A DNA stretch of 64,000 bases from a virus: IMG/VR virus record IMGVR_UViG_3300048590_000661, positions 1-64,000 of that record. One strand, written 5' to 3'. A program made the translations under genes and the position numbers. The notes beneath the pieces are model-generated. The model worked only from the letters and a program-made list of their open reading frames with translations, was not told the origin of the DNA and made no database searches. Below are positions 1-46,276 of the stretch, one piece after another. The number at the start of each line of letters is the position of its first letter. Position 1 is the first letter of the stretch.

Positions 1-210
1 TTTATCTAAAAAGTTTATAAAATAATAATTCTCTTTAGGGTATATATTACCTACTAATATTAAATCTGTGTTATCTAACTTATCTATTAATACGAATATA
101 TTATCGCCTATTAGTTCAAAAAGAACTACGTATGTTTTATTAGGGATCGTTACTTCACAATATTCTTTATTAATAAAAGTAGCGTATGCAATATCTACAT
201 AGCTATTCAT
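1..210 (-). CDS. hypothetical protein, 3'-truncated by window edge
   Basis: Manual translation from ATG at 210: MNSYVDIAYATFINKEYCEVTIPNKTYVVLFELIGDN..., open to position 1; not in ORF track. Confidence 0.55.
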   Translation of the reverse strand, partial: MNSYVDIAYATFINKEYCEVTIPNKTYVVLFELIGDNIFVLIDKLDNTDLILVGNIYPKENYYFINFLDK

Positions 211-247
211 AGTAGATAAGGAAGGAGAAGATATGCCTAATAGTCTT

Positions 248-517
248 TTAAGTACTTCTATGATTATCATTAGTAAACTTTCTTTCTACATTATCTACTT
301 CTAAATATGCTTCGTCAATACCTCTTAAGGCACATACTTCTATTAATAAACCTTCAAAGTCTAATACTAATACATCATTATCTTCATTTAACACTATATT
401 AGTTAGCCTACTATTCCCTACTTTATCAAGTATATCAGTTAATTCTATATAGCTATTGCCTTCACTATCTTCTGCATAATAGTCATTAACTATTATTTCA
501 TCTATCTTACTAGCCAT
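248..517 (-). CDS. hypothetical phage protein
   Basis: 89-aa acidic ORF, co-directional with its neighbours. Confidence 0.65.
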   Translation of the reverse strand: MASKIDEIIVNDYYAEDSEGNSYIELTDILDKVGNSRLTNIVLNEDNDVLVLDFEGLLIEVCALRGIDEAYLEVDNVERKFTNDNHRST

Positions 518-520
518 TAG

Positions 521-688
521 TTATACTATTCTTTCTATTTCTATCTTTAGTTTTGAGTCAGAAGATATCTTTAATATCTTTCCAGATCCAAAGTCAAGTA
601 TTACTACCTTCTCTTCTTCATAATACTTTATACTCTTAATAGTTTCATTACCTATCCTTCCCCTTAGTTCTTCTTCTTTACTTACCAT
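521..688 (-). CDS. small hypothetical protein (55 aa)
   Basis: Manual translation MVSKEEELRGRIGNETIKSIKYYEEEKVVILDFGSGKILKISSDSKLKIEIERIV*; abuts the 248..517 start; VVILDF resembles VLVLDF in that ORF. Confidence 0.6.
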   Translation of the reverse strand: MVSKEEELRGRIGNETIKSIKYYEEEKVVILDFGSGKILKISSDSKLKIEIERIV

Positions 689-799
689 TCTTATTCTTCT
701 CTCTTCCTAATTAGGTCAGTTAGGTTATTATATTACTTTATTCTTCTATTTTATTTACTTCTTATTTCTTTATTATTAACTTATTTAACTAACTAAGCT

Positions 800-1232
800 T
801 GTATGTTCAAGGTTAAAGAACCAAGGAACCAACTGCCTAGAAAGACCCCCAAACCCCCAAAATTAGAGGGTTTCCAGCGCCGTTATCGGGAGTTCATCGA
901 ACCGACTAAGCTAACCGGAAGAAAGAGAAGTAAGAAAGAAGAAGAAAGCACATCGGTTGATGAACTTTTAATTCTTGTACTTCACCCTACCAGAGCCATC
1001 CGTTTCAGAAAACTTGTCCTTAAGTGCTTGTGGCAACTTCTAGGCCGGTTAGCTACACTGTAACAAGTTCGGTATTTCTGTTCAACTACTCTAGACTGGT
1101 TGAGTGACCACTATAGTTCTGAAGGGTGCTTTTAAATATCTAGCTTTATAGTGAAGTCGTAGTATCTTAAGAGTAATATTTAGTCTGACTATTTCAATTC
1201 AGACACGGCTTGTATATTCTTTTTATTTTCTG
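800..1232 (-). ncRNA. putative large structured non-coding RNA / origin-associated transcript
   Basis: Lies downstream of a minus-strand sigma70-type promoter; at least 8 complementary segment pairs, including a loop-loop pairing 909-918/1045-1054; G5T3G5 tract at 846-858. Confidence 0.5.
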
Positions 1233-1238
1233 TTTTAT

Positions 1239-1268
1239 ATTGTACCACAGGTCATGCTGGTTTGTCAA
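1239..1268 (-). promoter_or_regulatory. sigma70-like promoter
   Basis: TTGACA-18nt-TACAAT with extended -10 TG on the minus strand. Confidence 0.7.
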
Positions 1269-1375
1269 CTTAAAGACTAGCTGGATCGATAGTTCTTTCC
1301 TATCAATCGTATCACCATTCATAGGCACAGACGATAGTAGAAAAATTCATTTATTTTCAACCAAACTATAGCTTA

Positions 1376-1384
1376 TGGTACAAT
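1376..1384 (+). promoter_or_regulatory. extended -10 promoter upstream of the HTH gene (divergent from 1239-1268)
   Basis: TGGTACAAT; weak -35. Confidence 0.45.
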
Positions 1385-1436: not shown

Positions 1437-1688
1437 ATGAGCAGACGAATAACAGAAACAGAATTGTTGACCGATAAAGAAAAAGTCTTTCAAGAACTAG
1501 GCTATGATGTTTTATATACTAGGGAAGAGGTTTGTAATGCAGCGAATGTATCTAGGATTTATTTGAAGCGGCTAATCGATAAGGGTACTTTACCTGGGCA
1601 TGTTGCAGTAGTAGGTAGGTACAAGTTGTTTACTAGTGAGGCGTTAGAAAATATTAAAGAACATTTTAAGCATCGTATCAATAAATAA
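1437..1688 (+). CDS. helix-turn-helix DNA-binding protein (excisionase/MerR-like HTH)
   Basis: LYTREEVCNAANVSRIYLKRLIDKGTLP...GRYKLF pattern; RBS AAGGA. Confidence 0.75.
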   Translation: MSRRITETELLTDKEKVFQELGYDVLYTREEVCNAANVSRIYLKRLIDKGTLPGHVAVVGRYKLFTSEALENIKEHFKHRINK

Positions 1689-1785: not shown

Positions 1786-2580
1786 GTGGTGATTATGCGT
1801 AAACGAGCGGAGTATTCAGAGGGTTATGTGTTTCCAAATAAACATTGGAAAATTATTAGAGAAATTGAAAAAAGAGGTAAACAACGATGTTTTCGATGTG
1901 CCTGTATGTTATGCAACATGGAATATGATGTGGTATTAGCAAGTTTAAGAAAAGAAAATGGTTGTTTCTGTTGTAAATCTTGTGCTATGTCTAAAGATTT
2001 AGTTGGTCAAAAATTTGGGAGATTATTAGTATTAGAAAAACATTCAATAAGTAAGAATAGAACCAATAAATATTTATGCTTATGCGACTGTCAAAATACA
2101 TGTGTTGTTTTTAGTACTGATTTACGCAGCAAAAAGATAATTTCATGTGGGTGTTACAGAAATGAATTGCTTATTCACAATAATAAATTAAACTGCGGCG
2201 AATTAGCGCCCAATTGGAAGGGTGGCGTAACGCCTCAAAATAAAATCGATAGAGATAAGATTACGCAACAGTTGAACCCATTAGTCCGCGAAAGAGATGG
2301 TGAAACTTGCCAAAAGTGTAGCCAGCACAAAGGATGGTTAGAAGTACACCACATATTCGATTTTGGGACTTATCAAGAATTACGATTTGAAATAAATAAC
2401 CTCATCACGTTATGCAAAAATTGTCATGATGATTTTCATTCTGTTTATTCAAGATACGGCAGCAACACCCTATCCGACTTAGAAGCATGGTTATCTCACG
2501 ATTACAAATATAGAACTGAGCTACTAGCGGCTTACTCAACTGTCATAGCGGCACCTACGTTAAGCGATAGCGTTAGTTAG
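1786..2580 (+). CDS. HNH homing endonuclease (HNH1) with N-terminal Cys/Zn-ribbon modules
   Basis: DLVGQKFGRLLVL, CxCxC, SCGC, RDGETCQKC...LEVHHI...NLITLCKNCHDDFH; start may be ATG 1795. Confidence 0.9.
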   Translation: MVIMRKRAEYSEGYVFPNKHWKIIREIEKRGKQRCFRCACMLCNMEYDVVLASLRKENGCFCCKSCAMSKDLVGQKFGRLLVLEKHSISKNRTNKYLCLCDCQNTCVVFSTDLRSKKIISCGCYRNELLIHNNKLNCGELAPNWKGGVTPQNKIDRDKITQQLNPLVRERDGETCQKCSQHKGWLEVHHIFDFGTYQELRFEINNLITLCKNCHDDFHSVYSRYGSNTLSDLEAWLSHDYKYRTELLAAYSTVIAAPTLSDSVS

Positions 2581-30045: not shown

Positions 30046-32232
30046 ATGCCAGTAATTGAAAACCAAGAATATAGAAATTTTATTGACCCTAGATGCTATG
30101 AACATTTAGAGTTTCCTAACATAAATAACCCTTGCATCTGTATGATGTCTGTAGGCAGTATTTATATTGGCACTACTGGTAGGGTATTTGTCCGCCAAAA
30201 GAAACGAAATGAAGAAATTTGTCGCTTTACAGATTGGGGCGAATTAATACCATCTCAGGAAATTGTTGGTGATAATTATCTATTAGGTGCAAGTTATAAT
30301 AGCACGACAAATATCCTCACCTTTACTTTAGTTAATGGTACAATTCTTACTGTTGACATGAATGATTTAGTAGATCCACCATCTATTATGACGGCAGATT
30401 TGCCTAATGCTCTTTGGGTGCATAATAATGGCAGTGGGGTACTTACTGATATCCGTTCTGTATCTGCCAACGAAAACAACATTTTAGATATTGGTACAGA
30501 TGGTGGTGCTTATCTTAACGCAGTATCGCTTTGCGCTCTTATTCAAGACTGCAATTTAGGGGTTGGGTTTAACTATATTTCTGGTACAAATACCCTTCGT
30601 TTACTAGACGCTAATAACGATGTTCTTAGCCAAGTAGCACTAAATAATACTTCATTAGTTAACAACAATAATGGGACATTTACTTTTACTAATGAAGTAG
30701 GAACAACTACTACTATTGATTTTAAGCGTACCATTATTACTAACCCCGAAGCTAATGTATACGTCATTACTGATGATAATGGTAATGTGGTAGAAATTGA
30801 TACAACTAATGTTGTTACTACCCTTACGCTAGTAGATTGCACATTAACCTACACTAATGAAGCTGGTACAGTAGTAGATCTAGATTTAACAACTTGTATT
30901 CAAGACTCTCAAAGTCTTACTACTATAGAATATTCTGGTGGTGTCATTACCTACACTGATGAGGCTGGTAATGAAACTACCCTGAATATTGGTGTTGAAA
31001 ATTTCTTAGCTAATGTAGATTATGATGGCGTACTTAATCAATTAACATTTACTCTTACTAATGGCACAGAATTTATTGTCAGCTTAAATGATTTAGTAGA
31101 CACTTTTGCAGTTAATATATTAGATACTGCTACCATTAATATGTCTATTAGTGGTACTGGGCCTACTATTGATCCTTATATTATTAGTGGGTCTGTAAAG
31201 ATTTCTACTGATGCTAATAATAAATTAGAAGCTAAAGCAGATGGGCTATATGTAGATACTAGAATACAATCTGCTAATGACTTTATCAATAATTCTGGTG
31301 TCGGTACTAATTTATTTCCAATTACCTATGACCATGCTAGTGGTAAATTTACTCTTACACAATTAAGCCATAGTAACTTAGCTAATTTAAATAGTGATGA
31401 CCACACACAGTATCTGCTGGCGGACGGTTCGCGCACGGGTGCGAGTAGTTCGTTGCAGGCGTTCACCAGCGGCGTGATTACCGGAATTGTGCGACCGGCG
31501 ACCGATTCGACTACGGCGTTTCGGATACAGGACGCGGCAGGTAGCACGTCTGTGCTGACGGTGGACACGACGAATGGTCGCATTGGTGTCAATGGCGCTC
31601 CGGGAGCGAACAGATTGTCTGTAAAATCGGCAGGGGGCATTGATGCCCTCCTCGTGCGGGACAGTGACGGAAAAGTATTTTGGGGGTCTACATCAGGATT
31701 CGCGTTGGGTGGGGGCACATATCCACTAGGGATTTTACATGACGGAATATCAGCCGCCATCACAAATAGCATTGGTGACATGCAGATACGCAACACGTCG
31801 GCAGCGGGGCGACTGTTATTCCGCACCATAAATACTAATCGGCTATTGATTGATGCGCTTAGTAATGGAGTGTCTGCCATTACGACAAATGTCATTGTGA
31901 CGCACACCGATTCAGGCACACCGGCGACGGGATTTGGCACAGGTATTAATTTTTTACTCAAGAGTAGCACGACGGCAGACCAAAGTGCGGGGCGTCTCAT
32001 TTTCAAGTGGGACGTTGCCGACCACGCCACCCGCAGCGCGACCGGCCAACTGTCGGCCTATTACACCACCACCGAGCACACGCCTGTCACCTGGGGCGCA
32101 AACAGCGGCGGGGCGTTGCTCTCGTTTTATGATGTCGCCACACCGATTGCCCGCCAAACGCTGCCGCTTGGTGCGAGTAGTGACGATATTGTCAATGCAC
32201 TGGCGAATTTGGGATTAACAAAACTTTCATAG
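30046..32232 (+). CDS. long tail fibre with a GC-rich swapped C-terminal tip
   Basis: Shared Cys module, NNNNGTFTFTNE repeats, HSNLANLNSDDHTQY motif, TNGRIGVNG; abrupt GC rise after ~31402. Confidence 0.8.
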   Translation: MPVIENQEYRNFIDPRCYEHLEFPNINNPCICMMSVGSIYIGTTGRVFVRQKKRNEEICRFTDWGELIPSQEIVGDNYLLGASYNSTTNILTFTLVNGTILTVDMNDLVDPPSIMTADLPNALWVHNNGSGVLTDIRSVSANENNILDIGTDGGAYLNAVSLCALIQDCNLGVGFNYISGTNTLRLLDANNDVLSQVALNNTSLVNNNNGTFTFTNEVGTTTTIDFKRTIITNPEANVYVITDDNGNVVEIDTTNVVTTLTLVDCTLTYTNEAGTVVDLDLTTCIQDSQSLTTIEYSGGVITYTDEAGNETTLNIGVENFLANVDYDGVLNQLTFTLTNGTEFIVSLNDLVDTFAVNILDTATINMSISGTGPTIDPYIISGSVKISTDANNKLEAKADGLYVDTRIQSANDFINNSGVGTNLFPITYDHASGKFTLTQLSHSNLANLNSDDHTQYLLADGSRTGASSSLQAFTSGVITGIVRPATDSTTAFRIQDAAGSTSVLTVDTTNGRIGVNGAPGANRLSVKSAGGIDALLVRDSDGKVFWGSTSGFALGGGTYPLGILHDGISAAITNSIGDMQIRNTSAAGRLLFRTINTNRLLIDALSNGVSAITTNVIVTHTDSGTPATGFGTGINFLLKSSTTADQSAGRLIFKWDVADHATRSATGQLSAYYTTTEHTPVTWGANSGGALLSFYDVATPIARQTLPLGASSDDIVNALANLGLTKLS

Positions 32233-32308
32233 TCGCAGCATCGCACACGCAAACAAGGGGATATGCTAACCATTAGCGAGTATTATGGATTAATTAGAGG
32301 TTTTTATT

Positions 32309-35458: not shown

Positions 35459-38400
35459 ATGGCATTAGTTAAGAGTGGTTTAGAAATTGAAATTAAAGGT
35501 ATTAAACAAGCACTAGATGAACTTGGTATGTTAGACCGTATCCAAGATCAATTAGCTCTATCTGCTGATAATGTAATTATTACCATTAGTGGCATGAATA
35601 AATCTATTGGTGCCCTAAATCAAAAAACTGGAACACTTAATAATGCTCTTAATCCAGATAGGTTTACTAACTTTGGTAACGCTGCTAATATAGCAGATAG
35701 TAAATTAGATGGTTTTAGTCAGGCTGTTCAAGCAACAGTCCCACACTTAAGAAATATAGCAACGGCAAGCAATGACCTTAATACTAGTGGGCTTAATACC
35801 TTATCTAACCTACAGATTAAAGATGAATCTATTAGAATTGCTGCAACTAGTGTAGAAAAATTAAAGCAAGAATTTCAAGAGCTAAATGTTATTCTTGACG
35901 GTCCTGTTGTTAAAAATATTCAAGAATTTACGGCTGCATTATCGAAAGCTAATATTGGTAATGGGTCATTTGGTACAGAAATTAACCAATTAGCATTAGG
36001 TTTTAGAAAACTTAATGAAATTAAAGACTTAAGCGCGATATCTGCTAACCTAAATAAGTTCCTAGATGTACTTAGGCGATTATCGGCTATTGAAGTTGGT
36101 GGTGCATTATCTGATTTAGATAGGTTAGCCCCTGCACTTAAGGCTGCTGGTGATGGGTTTAGGGAGTTTAATAAAACCACTAATATAAAAAACACTAGTG
36201 GGTTAGATGGGTTTATTAATGTAGTTAAAGAAATTGCTAAAGTACCACTAACAAAAATTAGTGGTGAATTGCCTATATTTGCAGTAGCTTTAGGTACATT
36301 AGCAGAAGCATTTAAAAAGTTTGCATCTGGTGCTCCTGGTGAAAAATTACCTTCTGCATTAAAAGCTGTTACATTAGCACTATCTGAATTAGTAAAAATA
36401 TCCGCTAAAGATGCAGGTAAAGGGATTGTAGATTTAGGTACAGCATTAGGTAGCGTTGCTACGCCGCTATCTAATTTTGCTAAAGCTATGCGTGATTTTA
36501 CTACTGGTAAAGGTATTACAGATTTACCTGCTAGAGCTAAAGATATTAAGGCTGCAATGCTAGATATTCGCAATGCCTTTAATTTTAAAGACATAGATAC
36601 GTTAGCACCCAAACTTCAACAACTTTCACCAGCACTTAGAGATTTTGCTAATGCATTTAAAGCATTCTCTACTGGTAAAAATACAAACTCTTTACCTGCT
36701 AATATTGCAGCAGTTTCAAAAGCACTGAATGATTTTTCTAAAATAAAGTTAGGTGATTTATCTGCTGATTTAACAACTTTGGGACCAGGAATAGAAAAGT
36801 TAGCTTTAGCATTTAGGGCTTTTACTACTGGCACTAATATTGGTGATTTACCACAACGTATCCAAGCAATTGTTAACGCTATTAATTCACTTAAGAATGT
36901 TAGAATAGAAAGCTTAGGACCAGAGCTACAAAGTGTGGTAAAACCTTTAGGCGAATTTTTTGGTGCCTTTCGCCTATTTTCTGGTAGTGAAAAATTTGCC
37001 GATATTGGTAAGCGATTCGGTGAGCTTCAAAAGGGGCTTAACGATATTAAGAAGCTTAATTTAGGTTCATTTGCTAAAGAACTTAAAGAAGTTTCTGTAG
37101 GCTTAGAATCATTAGTTAAGGCAGCGGCTTTAGTAAATAGTAAAAACCTTAGTAGCATTAGCGCAACGCTTACTGCATTACGAGCAGAATCACAAAAAGC
37201 TACATTAGCTAATCGAGCATTAGCACTTAGTTATACCTATTTAATTAACCCAGTAAAAAATGTAGCAAATGGGCTAGGTGGGTTGGCGGCTGCTATTATT
37301 AGGCTACCAATTAATATTTTTATTAACCAGCTAAAATTCTTACGTGCAGTATTTATTGGTTTCCCAATTGCAGTATTAACTAAGGGATTTCAATTATTTT
37401 TTGGTGCTATTAATTTAGTACAAAAAGCATTCTCTGGTTTTTCTACGTTAGTAGCTAAAGTAGCTAATATATTTAAAGCGTTAAGCCAAACAATGAATAA
37501 CTTAGGTATTATTGTTAAAGCCTTATTATTCCCAATTGTTGCACTTGTTAATGCCTTCAATAGCATTATTAATGTTGGTAGTAAAGTATCCTCTATCTTT
37601 ACTGCATTTAAAGTAAATCAAGTTGCTAATGATACAAAAGTATTATCAGAGAACTTAAAAAATACTAATGTAGAACTAACTAAAACAGCAGCAACTACAA
37701 CTAGAGCTAATGCTGAATTTGTTAAAACCGATGCTGTATTAACACAAGTAGGACAAGAATCCCAACGGGCTACTACTGGTGTACGTGGCATGTCTGGTGC
37801 ATTATCGGCTATTAATGTAGCACAGGTTACACTATTAGGTTTAGGTATTGCTGGTGCTACTAAGAAAATATTAGCATTTGCTGCTGCTGCTAAAAGTTTA
37901 GAAGTCATTAGTAATGTTTTTCAACGCTTAAACATGGTAGTTCGGCAATTTGGTGGGCAAATAATTGGTGGCGCATTTGAGGCAACTAGTACATTTGAAC
38001 AACAAACCCTACAAATCACTTCGCTATTAGCTAAAGAATTTGTCAAGTTAGGTAAAGCTGGCAGTGTGCAAGAAGCTTTACAATTAGATGAGCTTAATGC
38101 GACATTTAATGAATCATTAGCCATTATTAAAAGACTAGCCATTGAAAGTCCTTTTGATAATAAAGATATTATTACAGTTTTTAGAATGGCATCTAGCTTC
38201 GGGTTTATGCGTGAAGAAGCTTTAGATATGACTAGGATCTTAACTGATGCTAGTGCTGCTTTAGGTTTAACAGGTAGTGATGCTTCTGAAATTGCTAAGG
38301 TATTTGGTCAAATTAAATCGTTAGGCAAGCTATTAGCTGGTGATGTTAATCAATTAGCCCAACGTGGTATTAATGTTAAAACCATCCTTAAAGATGTAGG

Positions 38401-41400
38401 CTTGACAATGGCCGATGTGCAAGGTGGTGCATTAGATGCTGATCAAGCTATCCAATTAATTCTTACCAGTTTAGATAGAGATTTTGGTGGAAGTGCTGCT
38501 AGAGCTACAAATACATTAGCTGGTCTAGCTAGTACATTTACTAGTCTTAGAGATGATGTTTTAAGGACTACATTTACCCCATTATTTGATGCACTTAAAC
38601 CATTTGGAGCAGAACTATTAGCACCATTTCAAAATACAGACTTCTTAGAAAAAGTAACACAATTTGGCGAGGTACTTAGAGATAATGTATTAGGGGTAAT
38701 AACGGGTATAGTTCGCCCCATTGTGTTCTTGACTACTGCCTTTATCAATTTACCAAAACCTATCCAACAAGCTATATTCTTTGCTGCTAAGTTTGCCGCT
38801 ACTGCATTAGCAGTATCTACAGCCGTAGCAGTAGTGCAAGCTGGTATAGTGCTTTTTGGTACTACTTTGGCATTTATCTTCAACCCTATTTCCCTTACTG
38901 TTGGTGCATTAATATCGTTAGCAACGGTTGCATATACTGGTCGTGAGGCTATCACTAGTTTTGCCAACGCTATTGGTGGGAGTATTTATGCTCGACTTTT
39001 AGACTTAGCTAAAGTATTCCCCGTTATTGGTAATGCGTTAAATGGGCTACAAAGTGTATTTATTAGGATTAAAACTGGGTTTAATTCGTTATTTGAGCCA
39101 TCCGAAGCTACAAAACTAGCTAGATCAGTTGATACCTTCGTTCAATCTACTAATACATCTTTATCAAGTACAACAGGTTCTTTTAATGAGGTATCTTTTG
39201 CTGCGAATACAACGGCAAAAGCGCTAGGGTTAACGGGCACACTAGCTAAGAATATGGTGGCTTCTTTTATTCCTATGCGTAGAGAGTTGTCATTAGTTGC
39301 CTTAACTGGTGAGCAAGTAACTGAAGCATTAGATATTAAACCAACTGGGTTAGAAAATACTATCTCAACAATTAGCACCAGTATTAATGGGTTTAATAAT
39401 AGTATTAATAATTTATTTAGCGGTATTCAAAACACTATTCAGCCTGGAATAGATGCCGTTAGCGCTGGTGCCAACTCAATAGTGGCTGCATTTAATACTG
39501 CTGGGGTAGAAGTTACAAGCATTGGGCAATCTATACTATTAATATTTGGTGGGATAGGGCAAACTATTCTTGATGAGCTAGGTAAACTAGGCACAGGAAT
39601 ATCAGAAAGGTTAGGCGGGTTAGGTACTTTCTTTGCAGACTTCTTAACTAGCGTAACCGACTTTGGTGGTGGGTTAATTGATGCCTTCTCGCAAGGTATT
39701 TTAACATCCCTTAACTATGTAGCCGATGCCCTATTAGCTATTGCAGAATTAGTAACCTTTTGGCTAGAACCTGGGAGTCCGCCTAGATTACTTCCTGACA
39801 TTGATAAATGGGGTGCTGGATTAATCCTATCATGGATTGATGGTATGACTGCAACTATCGGCCCCGCATTTCAAGGTTTGGGTGGTATTATTGAAAAAGC
39901 GGCTGCTGGTATATTTTCTGTATTTATAGCAATAGGTAAATTCACTTTCGATACCATTATTAATAGCATCATTGCATTTGGTGGAATATTTACCCAAGTA
40001 TTTTCTAGTTTAGTCGCTGTAGGCACTGCTTTTATTGGTCAAATAGCTTTAATATTTAACTTAATCGCTAATAGCTTTCTAGTAGCTATTGACCCTGCGC
40101 TATCTTTTAAAGATAAATTTATTCGTATCCTTAATGAAGTGGGTTATTTCATTAGTGGCACATTCGTAAACGTTGGTGTATTAGTAGCTAGTGTTGCGCA
40201 AGATATTGTTAACTCACTATTAATAGTTAGCCAGTTTGTCATTAATGAGTTTGTTATTGGTTTTAATGCTATTAAAATGATATTCCCACAATTAGATGGG
40301 TTATCAACAAGAATAGCAGATTTTTCTAATAAAAGCTTGGCTAATCTACAAACTTTTGGTAATGGTGCGGCCACATTCTTTGCAGACTTACTAGATACTG
40401 TTACAGACTATGGTAGTGCTTTAATATCAGCTTTTAGCGATGGTATTATTGGTGCGGTTTCTGTAGTATCACAAGCCCTTAGTTATTTAGGTGATCAAAT
40501 AGCATATTGGTTAGCTCCTGGTTCGCCACCTCGCCTATTGCCTGAAATTGATAAATGGGGTACTGCTGCGGCTGGTGAATTTCTTGGTGGGTTTAGTTCT
40601 GCTGATTTCAGCAAAATTGAAGATTTTGGTTCTACCGCTGAAAAACTTTTAGAGAATATTAACTTAGACCCTGGAATAGATATTAATTTTCAAGGCATAT
40701 TTGAGGGGTTTGCTGGCGCATTAGCTCAAGGTAGTTTAGGTGAAGATACCTTTGCCGAAGTTAGCGCAGTAGCCCCACAAGCGGCAGCAGAGCTTCAACT
40801 ATTAGCTAGCACATATTTTTCTGTAGAAGATGCTAGTAAAAAACTAGAAGAAGCTAATGAAAAAGTTGCGGCTAGCCAAGCTAAAGTAACGGAAGAAACT
40901 GAAAAAATAGCTGAAGCTACTAAAACATATGATGACCAAATTGCAGAATTAGAAGGTCGTTTAACTGATATTGATACTGCATCTACTTATGATGCTGAAA
41001 TTAAGAAAATTGCCCAATTACAAGATGTCATTAATTCACGTTATACAAGCGAGTATGAACAAATGCAAGCGCAACGTGAAATTGAAAAGATTCGTAATAC
41101 ACAACAGCTACGGCAACTAAAAGCCGCAAAAGCTGCAAATGAGGCTAATTTACGGGCTGCTGAAGCGGAACTATCTGCCAATGAAAAAATGGCCCAACAA
41201 AGTGAAAGTAATGTAGATAAATCACAAGAAGAATTAGATGCCCTTAAAGCTAGGTTAGACCTTGCTGCTAAATTTGCTAGTGAAAATAGTGGTCTTGGCG
41301 CTGATGGCTCATTAGGTGGTAGCGATGCCGATGAAGATGGCAAGAAGCTTAAAGGTAAAAAGATAAAAATACCTAAAGGTGAAGATTTAGTTGATGCCTT

Positions 41401-44400
41401 CGATTTAGATTCTGCCTTAGCAATAGGTGAAGCTGGGTTTGCTAACTTTAATAATAAAATTCGTACTGCTTTTGATGATTTTAGGGATAAAATTCAAGGG
41501 GTCCGTGATGGCGTTAATGCTTTCTTCGATAATATTAGGGAGAAATTTGGAAGGTTACAAGAAGTATTTAAACCAGTAACGGATGCAGTTTATAAACTAT
41601 TTACAAACACAAACTTCTTAAAGACTGCATTCGTTGCTTTAGGGGTTATTTTAGCTGGGCCATTAATAATTGGTGCATTAACTACATTAGCTACAATTAT
41701 CGGTGGAATTGTAATAGCTTTAGGCCCATTTACAGGAACTTTATTACTATTAACTGGTGCATTAGGTGGTGCTGGGTTTGGCGCATACTTATTAGGTCAA
41801 AATTTAGCAGAAGCTAGTGGGTTATTTGGTGAAAGTTCAGCAATACTAAATGATGTAGTCAATAGCCTATTGACGATAGGATCAACCATTGGTACAGTAC
41901 TGTCTAATTTTGGCAGCGGTTTTATTACTGGGCTATTTGCAGATGGTCAAACTTTCTTATCTGCAATTCTTGGTTTTGATGTAACAGACCTATCTACTAT
42001 TTCTGCTAGTTTAGGGAACCTAGCCGCCGAGCTTGTACAAGAGTTTATTAGGTTTAACTTAATAATATTCAAAAGCTTTACAGGGATACTATTAGGAAAT
42101 AACCCTATTGATACATTCTTAACTGAATTAACAGGCAAGGATTATTCTGGCACTTTTGAGCAATTTGCGACTAAATTAGGTAATGACTTACGTAATTATG
42201 TCATCAAAGCATTTAACCTTTTTGAGTCTAATATAGCTAGTAGTGGAGTATTAGCGGGTGTAACTAAAACTTTAGGAACCCTTATTTCTGAAGCATTTGC
42301 TAATTTAGGCAATGCCGTAGCTGGAGTTGCTAACTTTGATTTGTCTACTATCTCATTTGATTTAGGTGGCATTACCCTTACTGGTGGGCCAGAATTAGGC
42401 ACTAAATTAGCTGGGTTATTAGGCGAAAGTTTTAACTTCTTAACTACTATTGATTTTAGCACACCTGCTACCGTCATTCAAAGTACTTTTGAAACAGCCT
42501 TCAATACTATTCAACCTATCGTTAGCCAAAAATTCTTAGAATTTATGACGCTAGTATTTGGGTCAAATAGTCAAAGCGTTATTGATGGCTTAACTACTAC
42601 CCTAGATAATATTGGGTTAGCTTTTGATCGTCTTTTCAATAATATTAATAAGCAAGGGTTAGCTGGTGGTATTCTTCAAACTATCTTTGGTGATGGTGCA
42701 CAAGCTATCTTAGCTAACTTTAGTATTGCTCTTTCTGGTTTAGAATCTGTATTTGGCTTAGTAGGTAGCGCTTTTAATACATTCTTAGCCAATATTGAAG
42801 CTAGTGGATTAGCAGATAGCCTTATTAACTTAGGCAACCAAATACTATATGCTAGCCAAGAAATACTTAAATTAATTGGACCATTAGTGGCTGGTGCGGT
42901 AGGTGGAGCTTTTGTATTATTATTAGAAGTATTTAAAGAATTACCATTTATCCTAACTAATGTCATAGACTTATTTGCCAACTTATTTGAAAGAATAGGT
43001 AATATTGCGAAAGCTATTACAGATTTGGTATTAGGCAATATTAGTTTCGGACAATTTTTAAGTGAGTTCTTTGGTAATATCTTAGGTATATTCTCTGACA
43101 TTGGAGTCTTTATTGATGGTATTGGAGATAATATTGCTAATGCAGTTAAAGGGTTTATATCTACTATTGGTGATTTAATTGGTATTGATGTACAACCATT
43201 CTTAGATAGTTTTGGCTTTATTATTGACATTATTGCTGATATTACATCTAGCCTTCTATTAGGTTGGGTATTTAAGCTTGCTACCCAATTTAACCGCTTA
43301 ACCAATATTTTTACTAAAACCAGTAAGCCATTAACAGAATTAGATAAAGCATTTATCTTTATTGGGCAAAAGGTGGCAAATTTATTTACTGGTATTAGTA
43401 GATTATTTGGTAGCTTTGGAAAATTGGGCACCAGCATTAAAAATGTTTTACCATCTACTACTAGCTTTACTAATGCCATCAATACAATTGGTGGTTTAGC
43501 TGGAGGTGTATTAAAGGCATTTTTTACATTTGCTACATCTAGTTTTGCTAAGTTTAATGCCACATTATTGGGTGTACTAGGAATAGCACTATTATTAAAG
43601 AATGGCATCATAGAAACTTTCACTGCTATTCGCGATGGTATTTCAGAGAAAATTAATGCTATTAATACATTCTTTAGTGCATTAGAACTAACTAACCCAT
43701 TCGCTTCACTATCAACTGCTATATTTGGTGAAGAAGGGTTTGTTAGTAAAATACAAGCTGTACCTGCTAGTTTTGATGGCTTATTTGCTAGTGTCGTTAT
43801 TGCAAACCCATTAGCTTTCTTTGATGACTTTTTCCCATTATTCAAACTTGCAATAGGTGAAGTTCCTGGGTATTTCACAGGGCTATTAGATACAATAACA
43901 ATAGTTAACCCATTTGACGCACTTAATGACTTCTTATTTAGTGAAACTGGATTTGTGAGTAAAGTATTAGGAATTGGTTCTTCGTTCGTTACAACTGCCG
44001 AAGATATTACTGGGATTAATATTATTGACCCATTTGAAGCGATTAAAATTACGCTAGGGTTAGTAAAAATAGCAGTAGATGAAATTCCTGGGCTAATAAC
44101 TAATTTAAGTAAAGCAATTAATGAGTTAACTGTTACTGATGTATTTGCCGCTATTGCTGAATCTACAAACTTCTTAGTAGAAGGCGCACAAAACCTATTA
44201 GAAATAGATTTAAGCGGCTTTAGTAATGTATTTGCTCCTGTCACTGCTACAATTGATGGTCTAGTAGAGAAATTTAATAACTTAACACAAACCTTTAAAG
44301 ATGCAGCAAACTTAGTTCCTGGTATTAATATTGGTGGTGCAGAATTAAGTGGCGTAGAAGTTATTCAAGAAAAAATCAAGACGGAGTTCGGAAATACACC

Positions 44401-46276
44401 TGTATCCAGTGAACAAAAACTAGATTTAATTTTTGAAGACCCTAATCTAAGCACTAAAGCATCTGCATTATTACAAGAGTTTGAAACTGCCTATGATAAT
44501 GCATCTGGACCATTAGGCACAAACTTTGCTGCTATCAATAAAGAATTAATAGCAAAAGGGTTTAGTGCAGAAGACATAATAGCTGTAGCTAAGGCTGCTG
44601 GGTTATCAATTGAAGAAGGGTTTGCTGAAGGGTTTACATCTGATACTAGCGCTACAACTAGAGAAGCTAGAGCTTTAGCCACTAATACACTGTTAGAGCT
44701 AAAAGACGCATTAGGTATTCAATCACCATCTACCGAAGCAAAAGACCAAATTGGTATTCCTGTAGTGGAGGGTATTATTGAACCTTTCTCAGATACAACA
44801 CTTATTCAACCAGCTATAACGACATTAGTAAATAACTTACTAGCAGAGTTAACCGCACAAGTAGAAAGTAAATCTAACAGTATTAAAGAAGCCATCAACA
44901 ACGCTTTAACACCTAAATTTCAAGAATCTGGTGCGGAATTAGGTACAGCGCTAGCAACATCTACTGCTACAACACTATCTAATGCTGATATTCCAGTAGA
45001 ATTAACAACTGACTTTAATGCTATTGGTACAGAGTATGGTACTGCATTAGGTGGTGGCTTTACAACTGGTTTAGATACAGAGCTATCTAAATCTACTGGC
45101 TTGACTGGTATCACTACATTATTCAAAAATACATTCACTGGTATTACTGCTACACTTAATAAGTTTAAAATATCATTATCAACAAGTCTTAATGGTTTAT
45201 ACTCATCATTTAATCAAATCACAAGCACCTTTTCTACAAATATGATTAGATTATGGTCTGTTATGTTTGATAGTTTAATTGAACTAATGGAAGAATTTGT
45301 AGATGAATTTATAGAGCTATTAGAAGACTTTTTGGAAGCGATTACCACTAATGTAGAAGATATGTTTGATAATATCGTTAGTTTATTTGCATCTTTTATC
45401 AATAGTATTCTAAATAGCTATAGCGTATTTACGACAGAATTAGTACGGCTAACAACAGTAGCAGTTATTAATATTATTAACCAATTTAAGCGGTTAGAAA
45501 CAGAACTAGTACCTATTATAGAACGGGCTATTGATGCTGCTACTGCTGCAATGCGTAAAATAGTAGATGCCTTCCGAACAATTGGTACTGATGCTGTTGA
45601 TGCCTTTATTGAGCAAGTTGACACAATGCTTGATAGAACTGTTGGTGCTATAGACATATTTATTACAGAAATATTGGATCTATATAGTGGAACAGGTAGT
45701 ACAATTTACGCTGCTGGTCGTAGTATTGGTGTAAATTTTATTAATGGTTGGATATTTGGTATTGAAAGTAGATTACCTGCGCTATTAGTTGTAGTTGGTA
45801 ATATGGTTGATTCTATGGTTGCTAAAGTAGAGTCTGAATTGCTGATTGAATCACCATCAAGAGTTATGTTTAGACTAGGTGAGTTTACTGGTGATGGTTT
45901 AGCTATGGGTATCCAAAATAAAATTAGCGCAGTATCTAATAGCATGAAAATGTTAACTGATAGCGTCGTTAATAGTGGGTTTAAAAATAAAGTCACGAAC
46001 TTTATTAATAAAGATATATTTGGTACAATGAATAACATAAAGACGGAAGGGTTATTATCGATTCAAGGGGCTGCGCAACGTCACTTAATTGATATGAATA
46101 CTGGGCAAAATATTACATCATATAGTCCAGACTATCAACGGCTAATAGCTAGTAGCAGCAACGTTAGTAATAGTTATGTAACCAATAATAGTTATGCTAT
46201 GACCGTTAATACAAAGCAGGACCGTGTAGTGCCAATTAGACGAAAGTTCCGCACTATGGAATTTATAGGGGTATAA
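35459..46276 (+). CDS. tape measure protein (3605 aa)
   Basis: Tape-measure domain (AIESPF...GQIKSLGKL..DVNQLAQRGI), long amphipathic repeats, GSPP and SPS motifs. Confidence 0.92.
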   Translation: MALVKSGLEIEIKGIKQALDELGMLDRIQDQLALSADNVIITISGMNKSIGALNQKTGTLNNALNPDRFTNFGNAANIADSKLDGFSQAVQATVPHLRNIATASNDLNTSGLNTLSNLQIKDESIRIAATSVEKLKQEFQELNVILDGPVVKNIQEFTAALSKANIGNGSFGTEINQLALGFRKLNEIKDLSAISANLNKFLDVLRRLSAIEVGGALSDLDRLAPALKAAGDGFREFNKTTNIKNTSGLDGFINVVKEIAKVPLTKISGELPIFAVALGTLAEAFKKFASGAPGEKLPSALKAVTLALSELVKISAKDAGKGIVDLGTALGSVATPLSNFAKAMRDFTTGKGITDLPARAKDIKAAMLDIRNAFNFKDIDTLAPKLQQLSPALRDFANAFKAFSTGKNTNSLPANIAAVSKALNDFSKIKLGDLSADLTTLGPGIEKLALAFRAFTTGTNIGDLPQRIQAIVNAINSLKNVRIESLGPELQSVVKPLGEFFGAFRLFSGSEKFADIGKRFGELQKGLNDIKKLNLGSFAKELKEVSVGLESLVKAAALVNSKNLSSISATLTALRAESQKATLANRALALSYTYLINPVKNVANGLGGLAAAIIRLPINIFINQLKFLRAVFIGFPIAVLTKGFQLFFGAINLVQKAFSGFSTLVAKVANIFKALSQTMNNLGIIVKALLFPIVALVNAFNSIINVGSKVSSIFTAFKVNQVANDTKVLSENLKNTNVELTKTAATTTRANAEFVKTDAVLTQVGQESQRATTGVRGMSGALSAINVAQVTLLGLGIAGATKKILAFAAAAKSLEVISNVFQRLNMVVRQFGGQIIGGAFEATSTFEQQTLQITSLLAKEFVKLGKAGSVQEALQLDELNATFNESLAIIKRLAIESPFDNKDIITVFRMASSFGFMREEALDMTRILTDASAALGLTGSDASEIAKVFGQIKSLGKLLAGDVNQLAQRGINVKTILKDVGLTMADVQGGALDADQAIQLILTSLDRDFGGSAARATNTLAGLASTFTSLRDDVLRTTFTPLFDALKPFGAELLAPFQNTDFLEKVTQFGEVLRDNVLGVITGIVRPIVFLTTAFINLPKPIQQAIFFAAKFAATALAVSTAVAVVQAGIVLFGTTLAFIFNPISLTVGALISLATVAYTGREAITSFANAIGGSIYARLLDLAKVFPVIGNALNGLQSVFIRIKTGFNSLFEPSEATKLARSVDTFVQSTNTSLSSTTGSFNEVSFAANTTAKALGLTGTLAKNMVASFIPMRRELSLVALTGEQVTEALDIKPTGLENTISTISTSINGFNNSINNLFSGIQNTIQPGIDAVSAGANSIVAAFNTAGVEVTSIGQSILLIFGGIGQTILDELGKLGTGISERLGGLGTFFADFLTSVTDFGGGLIDAFSQGILTSLNYVADALLAIAELVTFWLEPGSPPRLLPDIDKWGAGLILSWIDGMTATIGPAFQGLGGIIEKAAAGIFSVFIAIGKFTFDTIINSIIAFGGIFTQVFSSLVAVGTAFIGQIALIFNLIANSFLVAIDPALSFKDKFIRILNEVGYFISGTFVNVGVLVASVAQDIVNSLLIVSQFVINEFVIGFNAIKMIFPQLDGLSTRIADFSNKSLANLQTFGNGAATFFADLLDTVTDYGSALISAFSDGIIGAVSVVSQALSYLGDQIAYWLAPGSPPRLLPEIDKWGTAAAGEFLGGFSSADFSKIEDFGSTAEKLLENINLDPGIDINFQGIFEGFAGALAQGSLGEDTFAEVSAVAPQAAAELQLLASTYFSVEDASKKLEEANEKVAASQAKVTEETEKIAEATKTYDDQIAELEGRLTDIDTASTYDAEIKKIAQLQDVINSRYTSEYEQMQAQREIEKIRNTQQLRQLKAAKAANEANLRAAEAELSANEKMAQQSESNVDKSQEELDALKARLDLAAKFASENSGLGADGSLGGSDADEDGKKLKGKKIKIPKGEDLVDAFDLDSALAIGEAGFANFNNKIRTAFDDFRDKIQGVRDGVNAFFDNIREKFGRLQEVFKPVTDAVYKLFTNTNFLKTAFVALGVILAGPLIIGALTTLATIIGGIVIALGPFTGTLLLLTGALGGAGFGAYLLGQNLAEASGLFGESSAILNDVVNSLLTIGSTIGTVLSNFGSGFITGLFADGQTFLSAILGFDVTDLSTISASLGNLAAELVQEFIRFNLIIFKSFTGILLGNNPIDTFLTELTGKDYSGTFEQFATKLGNDLRNYVIKAFNLFESNIASSGVLAGVTKTLGTLISEAFANLGNAVAGVANFDLSTISFDLGGITLTGGPELGTKLAGLLGESFNFLTTIDFSTPATVIQSTFETAFNTIQPIVSQKFLEFMTLVFGSNSQSVIDGLTTTLDNIGLAFDRLFNNINKQGLAGGILQTIFGDGAQAILANFSIALSGLESVFGLVGSAFNTFLANIEASGLADSLINLGNQILYASQEILKLIGPLVAGAVGGAFVLLLEVFKELPFILTNVIDLFANLFERIGNIAKAITDLVLGNISFGQFLSEFFGNILGIFSDIGVFIDGIGDNIANAVKGFISTIGDLIGIDVQPFLDSFGFIIDIIADITSSLLLGWVFKLATQFNRLTNIFTKTSKPLTELDKAFIFIGQKVANLFTGISRLFGSFGKLGTSIKNVLPSTTSFTNAINTIGGLAGGVLKAFFTFATSSFAKFNATLLGVLGIALLLKNGIIETFTAIRDGISEKINAINTFFSALELTNPFASLSTAIFGEEGFVSKIQAVPASFDGLFASVVIANPLAFFDDFFPLFKLAIGEVPGYFTGLLDTITIVNPFDALNDFLFSETGFVSKVLGIGSSFVTTAEDITGINIIDPFEAIKITLGLVKIAVDEIPGLITNLSKAINELTVTDVFAAIAESTNFLVEGAQNLLEIDLSGFSNVFAPVTATIDGLVEKFNNLTQTFKDAANLVPGINIGGAELSGVEVIQEKIKTEFGNTPVSSEQKLDLIFEDPNLSTKASALLQEFETAYDNASGPLGTNFAAINKELIAKGFSAEDIIAVAKAAGLSIEEGFAEGFTSDTSATTREARALATNTLLELKDALGIQSPSTEAKDQIGIPVVEGIIEPFSDTTLIQPAITTLVNNLLAELTAQVESKSNSIKEAINNALTPKFQESGAELGTALATSTATTLSNADIPVELTTDFNAIGTEYGTALGGGFTTGLDTELSKSTGLTGITTLFKNTFTGITATLNKFKISLSTSLNGLYSSFNQITSTFSTNMIRLWSVMFDSLIELMEEFVDEFIELLEDFLEAITTNVEDMFDNIVSLFASFINSILNSYSVFTTELVRLTTVAVINIINQFKRLETELVPIIERAIDAATAAMRKIVDAFRTIGTDAVDAFIEQVDTMLDRTVGAIDIFITEILDLYSGTGSTIYAAGRSIGVNFINGWIFGIESRLPALLVVVGNMVDSMVAKVESELLIESPSRVMFRLGEFTGDGLAMGIQNKISAVSNSMKMLTDSVVNSGFKNKVTNFINKDIFGTMNNIKTEGLLSIQGAAQRHLIDMNTGQNITSYSPDYQRLIASSSNVSNSYVTNNSYAMTVNTKQDRVVPIRRKFRTMEFIGV

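Follow-up and report, generated by a model that had tools for sequence, protein, structure and literature searches.

In Escherichia coli, the rpoS mRNA has a leader of several hundred nucleotides that pairs back onto the ribosome-binding site and is opened by Hfq-dependent small RNAs. ColE1 RNA II is a promoter-driven, untranslated primer RNA of several hundred nucleotides that contains a G-rich stretch. A primer of this type ends or is processed at the origin, is regulated by an antisense RNA from an opposing promoter within its 5' part, and forms at the G-rich stretch a lasting RNA-DNA hybrid that RNase H cuts. Among phages, the genes e, soc, 49 and I-TevI of T4 are described as lying on long early transcripts in which upstream sequence base-pairs with the Shine-Dalgarno sequence or start codon and so masks it, while transcripts from a closer late promoter are translated (PMC3014915). 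Here, we analyze positions 800-1268 of the virus record IMGVR_UViG_3300048590_000661 from IMG/VR, a sequence of 124,598 bp with a GC content of 33%, whose first 64 kb constitute the window, i.e., the whole stretch of DNA under study. A sequence-only reading had proposed that a minus-strand promoter at 1239-1268 drives a free-standing, pseudoknotted non-coding RNA of about 430 nt, possibly a replication primer. We tentatively favor, as a good possibility, another interpretation, namely that the region holds a promoter and about two thirds, from the 5' side, of the 544-nt mRNA leader made from it, within which a predicted cis-acting element would pair with the translation-initiation region (TIR) of the first leftward open reading frame (ORF).

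The proposed arrangement resembles the T4 leaders, to the extent that these are set out in that account, in that the upstream part of a long phage transcript would pair with a downstream Shine-Dalgarno sequence and start codon and block the 30S subunit, in cis and without a protein. In T4, according to the same account, the arms of the helix lie close together and a late promoter within the structure gives a short translatable mRNA, whereas no internal promoter was found here. Further differences are that the arms are about 230 nt apart, that the duplex is a purine-pyrimidine one of about 35 bp and that the upstream arm is located in a hairpin loop; there is no sequence relation between the two systems. 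With rpoS, the locus would share a long leader folding onto a ribosome-binding site, but rpoS is a host gene, no small-RNA partner of that kind is known at this locus, and no homology exists. Dependence on a promoter, a length of several hundred untranslated nucleotides and a G-rich stretch are common to ColE1 RNA II and the proposed transcript, which differs, however, in having no origin signal, no listed antisense promoter and no Rfam match, and in continuing into genes. Phi29 packaging RNA and other phage non-coding RNAs in Rfam are comparable as phage-encoded RNAs with an early host-type promoter, unlike them the region matches no Rfam family.

The TTGACA-18-TACAAT promoter of the sequence-only reading was indeed present on the minus strand at 1268-1239. 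It has both the -35 and the -10 hexamer, a spacer of 18 nt (the accepted range being 16-18 nt) and the TG of an extended -10. Sites of the form TTGACA-N16-19-TAYAAT occur eight times in the 124.6-kb genome, this one included, and seven of the eight read TTGACAA; base-composition arithmetic gives a chance expectation of about 0.7 per genome, and we therefore take the site for a genuine promoter of host type. A transcription start near 1232 is inferred from the distance that normally separates it from the -10 hexamer. On the minus strand of the gap (1239 to 689), no further promoter-like site ahead of the leftward genes appears in the consensus-scan list.

A promoter-driven, untranslated RNA across 800-1232 is likely. 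On the minus strand of the leader region, TAA, TAG and TGA stops are mixed in all three frames, which also rules out stop-codon recoding of this strand, and no small leader ORF with a Shine-Dalgarno sequence was found on it. No terminator-like site was detected on the minus strand in 1-1232, nor in the next 3.6 kb of the leftward operon. Since no terminator precedes the next ORF, the RNA reads as an mRNA leader and not as a separate 430-nt RNA, and it would be expected to extend over 544 nt before entering the first leftward ORF (688-521). The tract expected near the 3' end of the proposed RNA, G5T3G5 on the RNA and C5A3C5 on the plus strand, was located at 846-858 (CCCCCAAACCCCC). A discrete 3' end at this tract is not supported, as neither a terminator nor any other mark was found there.

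Within the leader, the segment 891-966 forms a hairpin with a predicted energy of -22.3 kcal/mol on the minus strand, compared with -10.9 +/- 2.3 kcal/mol for shuffled sequences (z -4.94, reached by 0 of 200 shuffles); on the plus strand, z is -3.0. The pyrimidine (CU) tract in its loop, 917-948, is the sole 32-nt window of the 124.6-kb genome with at least 30 of 32 purines on one strand, and constitutes its most extreme purine/pyrimidine tract. This tract is complementary to 663-712, the TIR of the first leftward ORF, as seen in the inverted repeats I1, I3 and I8 and in the duplex map. The predicted tract-TIR duplex has an energy of -36.9 kcal/mol, and among 199 candidate TIRs the tract's own downstream TIR ranked first (next -25.7; mean -13.9, standard deviation (SD) 4.4). 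Composition-preserving shuffles of the tract reached the observed duplex energy in 7 of 1000 cases, and in 5 of 1000 for the core. In the reverse search, of 22,648 windows from the two strands of the genome, none apart from the TIR's own antisense paired better with the TIR than the CU tract. When each of the 199 ORFs was compared with its own upstream 80-644 nt, the ORF starting at 688 was the top outlier with -41.7 (next -29.4; mean -20.3, SD 3.8).

Folding of the 593 nt that cover the leader and the start region paired the tract with the TIR in both the minimum free energy (MFE) and the centroid structure. The predicted unpaired probability of the ribosome-binding region was 0.19 with the tract in the transcript and 0.71 in transcripts starting downstream of it. 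Thus, the arrangement that defines TIR sequestration, with the ribosome-binding and start region paired to an upstream segment of the same transcript, was found in silico only. We hypothesize that host RNA polymerase starts near 1232, meets no terminator and continues into the leftward ORFs from 688. The loop of hairpin 966-891 would present the 32-nt pyrimidine tract, whose complement, about 230 nt downstream, spans the ribosome-binding region of the first ORF and its initial codons; pairing in the cell would occlude the TIR, and translation of the first gene would be held down. Relief could come from a shorter transcript without the tract, from processing, from a trans factor or from pairing of the tract with the purine-rich copy at 777-736. 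When the TIR was forced open in the model, the CU tract paired with 777-736, at a cost of about 12 kcal/mol. A more elaborate version, in which the hairpin-displayed anti-TIR loop and the decoy copy at 777-736 form a three-element timing switch on a paralogous early-gene family, amounting to a new type of riboregulator that might be processed into a separate RNA, appears unlikely.

Taken as a whole, the region folded no better than shuffled sequence, an outcome that the sequence-only reading itself had named as refuting. The 441-nt minus-strand RNA (800-1240) had an MFE of -105.3 kcal/mol against -101.6 +/- 5.8 kcal/mol for dinucleotide shuffles (z -0.64), with 29 of 100 shuffles as good, and the plus strand gave z -0.35 (42 of 100); the best 120-nt sliding window inside 800-1240 reached z -2.1. 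The nine complementary pairs of the sequence-only reading were all recovered, seven of them perfect. The pair 891-905/953-966 has one bulged base, and 1082-1088/1097-1103 contains a G-U wobble on the plus strand that corresponds to an A-C mismatch on the proposed minus-strand RNA. Of these helices, only hairpin 891-966 exceeds chance: segments with the other helices, folded alone, gave z values from -0.35 to +0.35 (-1.9 for 1176-1232), and the perfect 10-bp 'kissing' pair was equalled in 28 of 300 mononucleotide shuffles, which places the pseudoknot or kissing loop and the switch helices at chance level. Perfect inverted repeats of k=7 were mildly enriched (15 versus 7.8 +/- 3.7; 15 of 300 mononucleotide shuffles reached this count). 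The 12-mers described as bracketing the region are present at 797 and 1208, but at least two matches occurred in 23 of 100 window shuffles. A mobile insert bounded by these 12-mers was considered and rejected, the repeat being at chance level, with about 0.7 such pairs expected per 800 nt by our own estimate.

None of the 4227 families of Rfam 15 reached its gathering score anywhere in the genome, the window included. A permissive search of 650-1450, with E up to 10, returned only five weak hits (E 0.34 to 6.6; 15-23 bits compared with gathering scores of 40-122). The families concerned are eukaryotic microRNAs and snoRNAs and, in one case, an Epstein-Barr virus RNA; the best hit reached 23.1 bits against a threshold of 122, and all are regarded as noise. 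No tRNA or tmRNA was found in the window by ARAGORN. What stands of the functional structured RNA first proposed is therefore a likely promoter-driven, untranslated RNA with one real hairpin, while its free-standing nature, pseudoknot, switch and primer function are not upheld.

With respect to replication, cumulative GC skew starts close to 0, peaks near 54 kb and is lowest near 90-92 kb; after removal of the net drift by our own arithmetic, the minimum lies at about 90-91 kb. Beside this minimum lie a further strong promoter and the gene for a D5-type primase-helicase (89.2-90.7 kb), and a Pol III alpha-like polymerase gene is found at 64.7-67.7 kb. Skew and replication genes point to about 90 kb for the origin, whereas the skew near 1 kb changes sign only with the coding strand, so no origin signal was obtained there. 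No iterons were detected in 800-1230, and an intramolecular quadruplex would require more than the two G5 runs present. On the plus strand of 500-1800, no promoter-like site was listed by the consensus scan, and thus no antisense promoter opposing the 5' part of a primer; a probable rightward promoter at 1356-1384 points away from it.

Across 800-1063, the plus-strand 86-codon frame at 803-1063 is alone among the six in being open, and it also ranks first by the phage codon table. Its codon score was equalled by 11 of 2000 nucleotide shuffles, yet the per-codon score is negative (-0.31), a value shared by the neighboring 55-aa ORF. GC at third codon positions (GC3) is 0.44, compared with 0.22 in long genes. 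No homologs were found in PHROGs, in 5.8 billion clusters or in 1.84 billion representatives (HMMER), and the exact protein is absent from a 15-billion-protein collection that includes both of its neighbors. The possibility of an inverted paralogue of the leftward genes was discarded, as blastp gave no match to the neighboring small proteins at E up to 10. The frame is thus an unlikely gene, and a conserved protein at 803-1063, which would have counted against the sequence-only reading, was not detected in these collections.

Several observations weigh against a regulatory role of the leader. The hairpin segment and the CU tract were chosen after viewing the sequence. Both the tract and the TIR are low-complexity purine/pyrimidine runs, and this purine-rich TIR is a fairly good partner for any 44-mer rich in C and U (mean -26.3 kcal/mol for shuffled tracts), the specific excess being only about 3 SD. 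The set of 199 ORFs is a crude, uncurated list of our own making. The 593-nt fold has an overall z of -1.28, with 9 of 100 shuffles as good, and its AUG lies within an internal loop with an unpaired probability of 0.74. No sigma-70-like site was found by the scan between 917 and 712 on the minus strand, and hence no internal promoter for a shorter translatable transcript; likewise, no late-promoter motif was seen inside the leader, and k-mer inspection of 11 late-gene upstream regions revealed no motif that could clearly be taken as a promoter of the phage's own. The model accounts neither for the opening 260 nt of the leader (1232-970) nor for the GC elevation in 801-1075 (0.445 versus 0.33 in the genome), and it was derived computationally from one genome. 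The affinity of CU-rich sequences for this TIR and the chance-level folds of the whole RNA would also fit a plain leader or spacer, in which the promoter serves the operon with no regulatory role, and hairpin and complementarity are by-products of low complexity, of an old small inverted duplication or of decayed foreign DNA. The GC3 and GC values look foreign in a phage of 33% GC, plus-strand frame 0 has only 5 stops in 689-1240, as would fit a decayed gene, and high-GC DNA has clearly been taken up elsewhere in the genome (31301-32300, up to 0.64 GC). We nevertheless consider a plain leader somewhat unlikely, given that the complementarity exceeds that of every other ORF among the 199, with a lead of more than 3 SD over the runner-up, that the complementary tract lies inside the loop of the sole significant hairpin and that this tract is the single most extreme of the genome. 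That all three should coincide in one transcript is unlikely.

A free-standing structured RNA of about 400 nt from the 1268 promoter, either a new phage RNA class or a primer similar to ColE1 RNA II, would be in keeping with the strong promoter, the 544 nt devoid of a minus-strand ORF, the raised GC, the one significant hairpin and the mild surplus of short inverted repeats; moreover, G runs in RNA over a C-rich template could favor an RNA-DNA hybrid. It is nonetheless improbable in the light of folding no better than shuffles, eight of nine helices at chance level, the failure to find, in 1-1232 of the minus strand, a terminator or any defined 3' end, and the Rfam results, and the primer variant also conflicts with the skew minimum beside the primase-helicase gene, the absence of iterons and the small number of G runs. 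That the frame at 803-1063 is a real orphan gene for a basic 86-aa protein, to which the leftward transcript would then be antisense, is very doubtful. Its openness and codon ranking speak for it, and it is purine-rich like the coding strands of this genome; its lack of a Shine-Dalgarno sequence is weak evidence, since just 15 of 40 long ORFs of the phage have one. It has, on the other hand, no homologs in the collections searched, a non-native GC3, a negative per-codon score (like the 55-aa ORF), no similarity to the neighboring small proteins and no listed plus-strand promoter, and it would run head-on to a strong promoter. Finally, the 15-bp inverted repeat around a homopurine-homopyrimidine tract could act in DNA, by forming a cruciform or triplex, by binding a protein or by serving as an origin element that lies between divergent promoters. 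The repeat is equally present in DNA and significant on both strands, its tract is unique in the genome, and the divergent control region holds other inverted repeats; still, such a role is highly improbable, as the repeat lies at least 270 bp inside the transcribed leader and away from the promoters, iterons are absent, GC skew and replication genes point elsewhere, and a DNA role leaves the specific match between the tract and the downstream TIR unexplained.

Table 1. Coordinates of the features in and around the 800-1268 region (window positions unless marked as genome positions).
Feature	Position	Strand	Remarks
Leftward sigma-70/sigma-A-type promoter, TTGACA-18-TGgTACAAT	1239..1268	-	11/12 hexamer positions, TG present
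Inferred untranslated 5' leader of the leftward early operon, ~544 nt	689..1232	-	No minus-strand ORF, no terminator-like site and no listed internal promoter; holds the 800-1268 region
Hairpin, 14-15-bp stem (one bulge), loop ~47 nt	891..966	-	Arms confirmed; the one hairpin beyond chance
Pyrimidine (CU) tract in the hairpin loop, proposed anti-TIR element	917..948	-	31/32 purines on the plus strand
RNA tract GGGGGUUUGGGGG (858-846)	846..858	-	Ordinary local hairpin, segment z -0.35; not a demonstrable 3' end
Second purine-rich TIR-like copy, possible alternative partner of the CU tract	736..777	-	Repeats D1, D3, D4, I2, I9; duplex -22.4 kcal/mol
TIR of the first leftward ORF	663..712	-	Purine-rich ribosome-binding region, AUG 688-686, codons 2-8
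First leftward ORF, 55 aa	521..688	-	Gene call of the source pipeline; identical protein in the collection, source JGI/IMG, 3 contigs (longest 124,704 bases)
86-codon open frame, probably not a gene	803..1063	+	No homologs, non-native GC3
Probable rightward promoter, same extended -10, TGGTACAAT, weak -35	1356..1384	+	-35 read by eye; absent from the consensus-scan list
ORF-free stretches	genome 116364-116722, 117606-118114, 121628-122270, 122466-122769		No ORF of at least 50 aa

The ends of the record share a 21-base overlap, which indicates a circular assembly with an arbitrary position 1. Positions 689-1436 form the gap that separates two divergent gene blocks. The rightward promoter at 1356-1384 would probably serve the first gene of its block, at 1437. 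Between the divergent promoters, an imperfect inverted repeat at 1283-1309 (GGATCGATAG, 7 bases, CTATCAATCG), read by eye, looks like an operator, and sliding windows over 1200-1400 gave fold z values down to -2.6. The first gene of each block is closely preceded by a copy of the palindrome CTAATTAG (706-713 and 1415-1422).

The leftward block, with its first start codon at 688, consists of ORFs of 55 aa, 89 aa and then about 107 aa, the last spanning the record ends. The leftward ORFs farther round the circle (137, 86 and 109 aa) are paralogues of each other and of the end-spanning ORF, and the leftward early operon (window 1-688 and L008 5534-6532, both on the minus strand) represents a family of small paralogous proteins. 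In comparisons against a tiny database, on which all E values in this and the following paragraph depend, the 137-, 86- and ~107-aa ORFs were mutually similar with E of 1e-5 to 1e-7, the 109-aa ORF matched the 86-aa ORF with E 0.002, and the 55- and 89-aa ORFs showed a weak mutual match with E of about 1e-3. The PHROGs scan, which covered the 55- and 89-aa ORFs among the leftward ones, assigned neither to a family.

The rightward block opens with a gene for an 83-aa helix-turn-helix (HTH)/excisionase-like protein, followed by an HNH endonuclease gene at 1786-2580. A second 83-aa protein of this type is encoded at L008 4771-5022 (-) and shares 30% identity (E 4e-12) with the product of window 1437-1688 (+); both paralogues lie behind a strong promoter-like site, with an HNH endonuclease gene nearby. 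The neighboring genes include several HNH endonucleases and an ArdA anti-restriction protein, taken here as typical early genes, and the divergent block looks like an early region. The genome carries no fewer than eight ORFs with a match to an HNH endonuclease family, seven of them in Pfam and one, window 1786-2580, in PHROGs. The ArdA gene is located at L011 11604-12116, and a Dam-type and a C5 DNA methylase are both encoded. The early region also contains, within a few kb of 800-1268, four more stretches of 300-640 bases each that are free of ORFs (Table 1); no Rfam match was found in them.

Relatives of the region were sought in several collections. No match was obtained by blastn of 600-1500 against 50,697 phage records or of 780-1280 against plasmids, and BLAST of 700-1430 against the phage's own genome revealed no second copy. 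An IMG/VR seed scan with a 19-mer over the C5A3C5 tract retrieved five loci, all in contigs of 55-70% GC. One of them lies inside a 246-codon open frame, and the others share only the seed, except L004. In this IMG/VR contig of 65% GC, positions 1498-1549, in a gap between two genes, align with window 841-890 over 53 columns at 83% identity. A degenerate 21-mer over the shared part retrieved five IMG/VR loci, which, read by eye, all appear to be the beginning of a single conserved coding sequence that lacks the C tract. As the follow-up scan gave no further members, the likeness is treated as due to chance and not as homology, although this is not proven. A 21-mer over the hairpin arm retrieved no loci in the IMG/VR seed scan.

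The neighboring 83-aa protein has no relative in IMG/VR and matches only itself among 5.8 billion clusters. With the large terminase alone as query, no relatives were found in IMG/VR or in species genomes; one relative of 31% identity was found in JGI metagenomes, and identity was at most 29% among the listed phage records. Searches based on a terminase alignment retrieved 7 and 15 loci; none exceeds 38% identity, which is too distant for a comparison of non-coding DNA. Large terminases of 71-77% identity are known as proteins, in five clusters with contigs of up to 50,489 bases. Judged by these sequence comparisons, the phage is without a near relative among deposited phages, its terminase being at most 29% identical in the listed matches.

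Further features were recorded elsewhere in the genome. The final ~300 codons of a 728-aa ORF (30046-32232) reach 0.64 GC (31301-32300), compared with 33% in the genome, which suggests that this C-terminal domain was recently gained from a high-GC source; the ORF has a tail-fiber-type look from its place among structural genes and its repetitive N-terminal part. A single ORF of 3605 aa is also found among the structural genes (window 35459-46276, +). The large subunit of ribonucleotide reductase is encoded by two ORFs with a LAGLIDADG endonuclease ORF between them (L009 13939-16474, genome 77,939-80,474, minus strand), an arrangement that may represent an intron, an intein or a split gene; Rfam revealed no group I intron at this locus at gathering score. 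ARAGORN predicted a tRNA-Ile (anticodon TAT) at L010 12051-12124 (genome 96,051-96,124, +), where the Rfam tRNA model scored below gathering.

Whichever view of the leader holds, the idea of a replication primer can be dropped, which spares follow-up effort. If the proposed pairing is not real, the region is just a long leader; if it is real, it offers a simple, testable element of 32 nt. In that case, the translation of an early gene would be set by long-range RNA structure in the leader, outside the T4 group, in an uncharacterized lineage of 125-kb phages.

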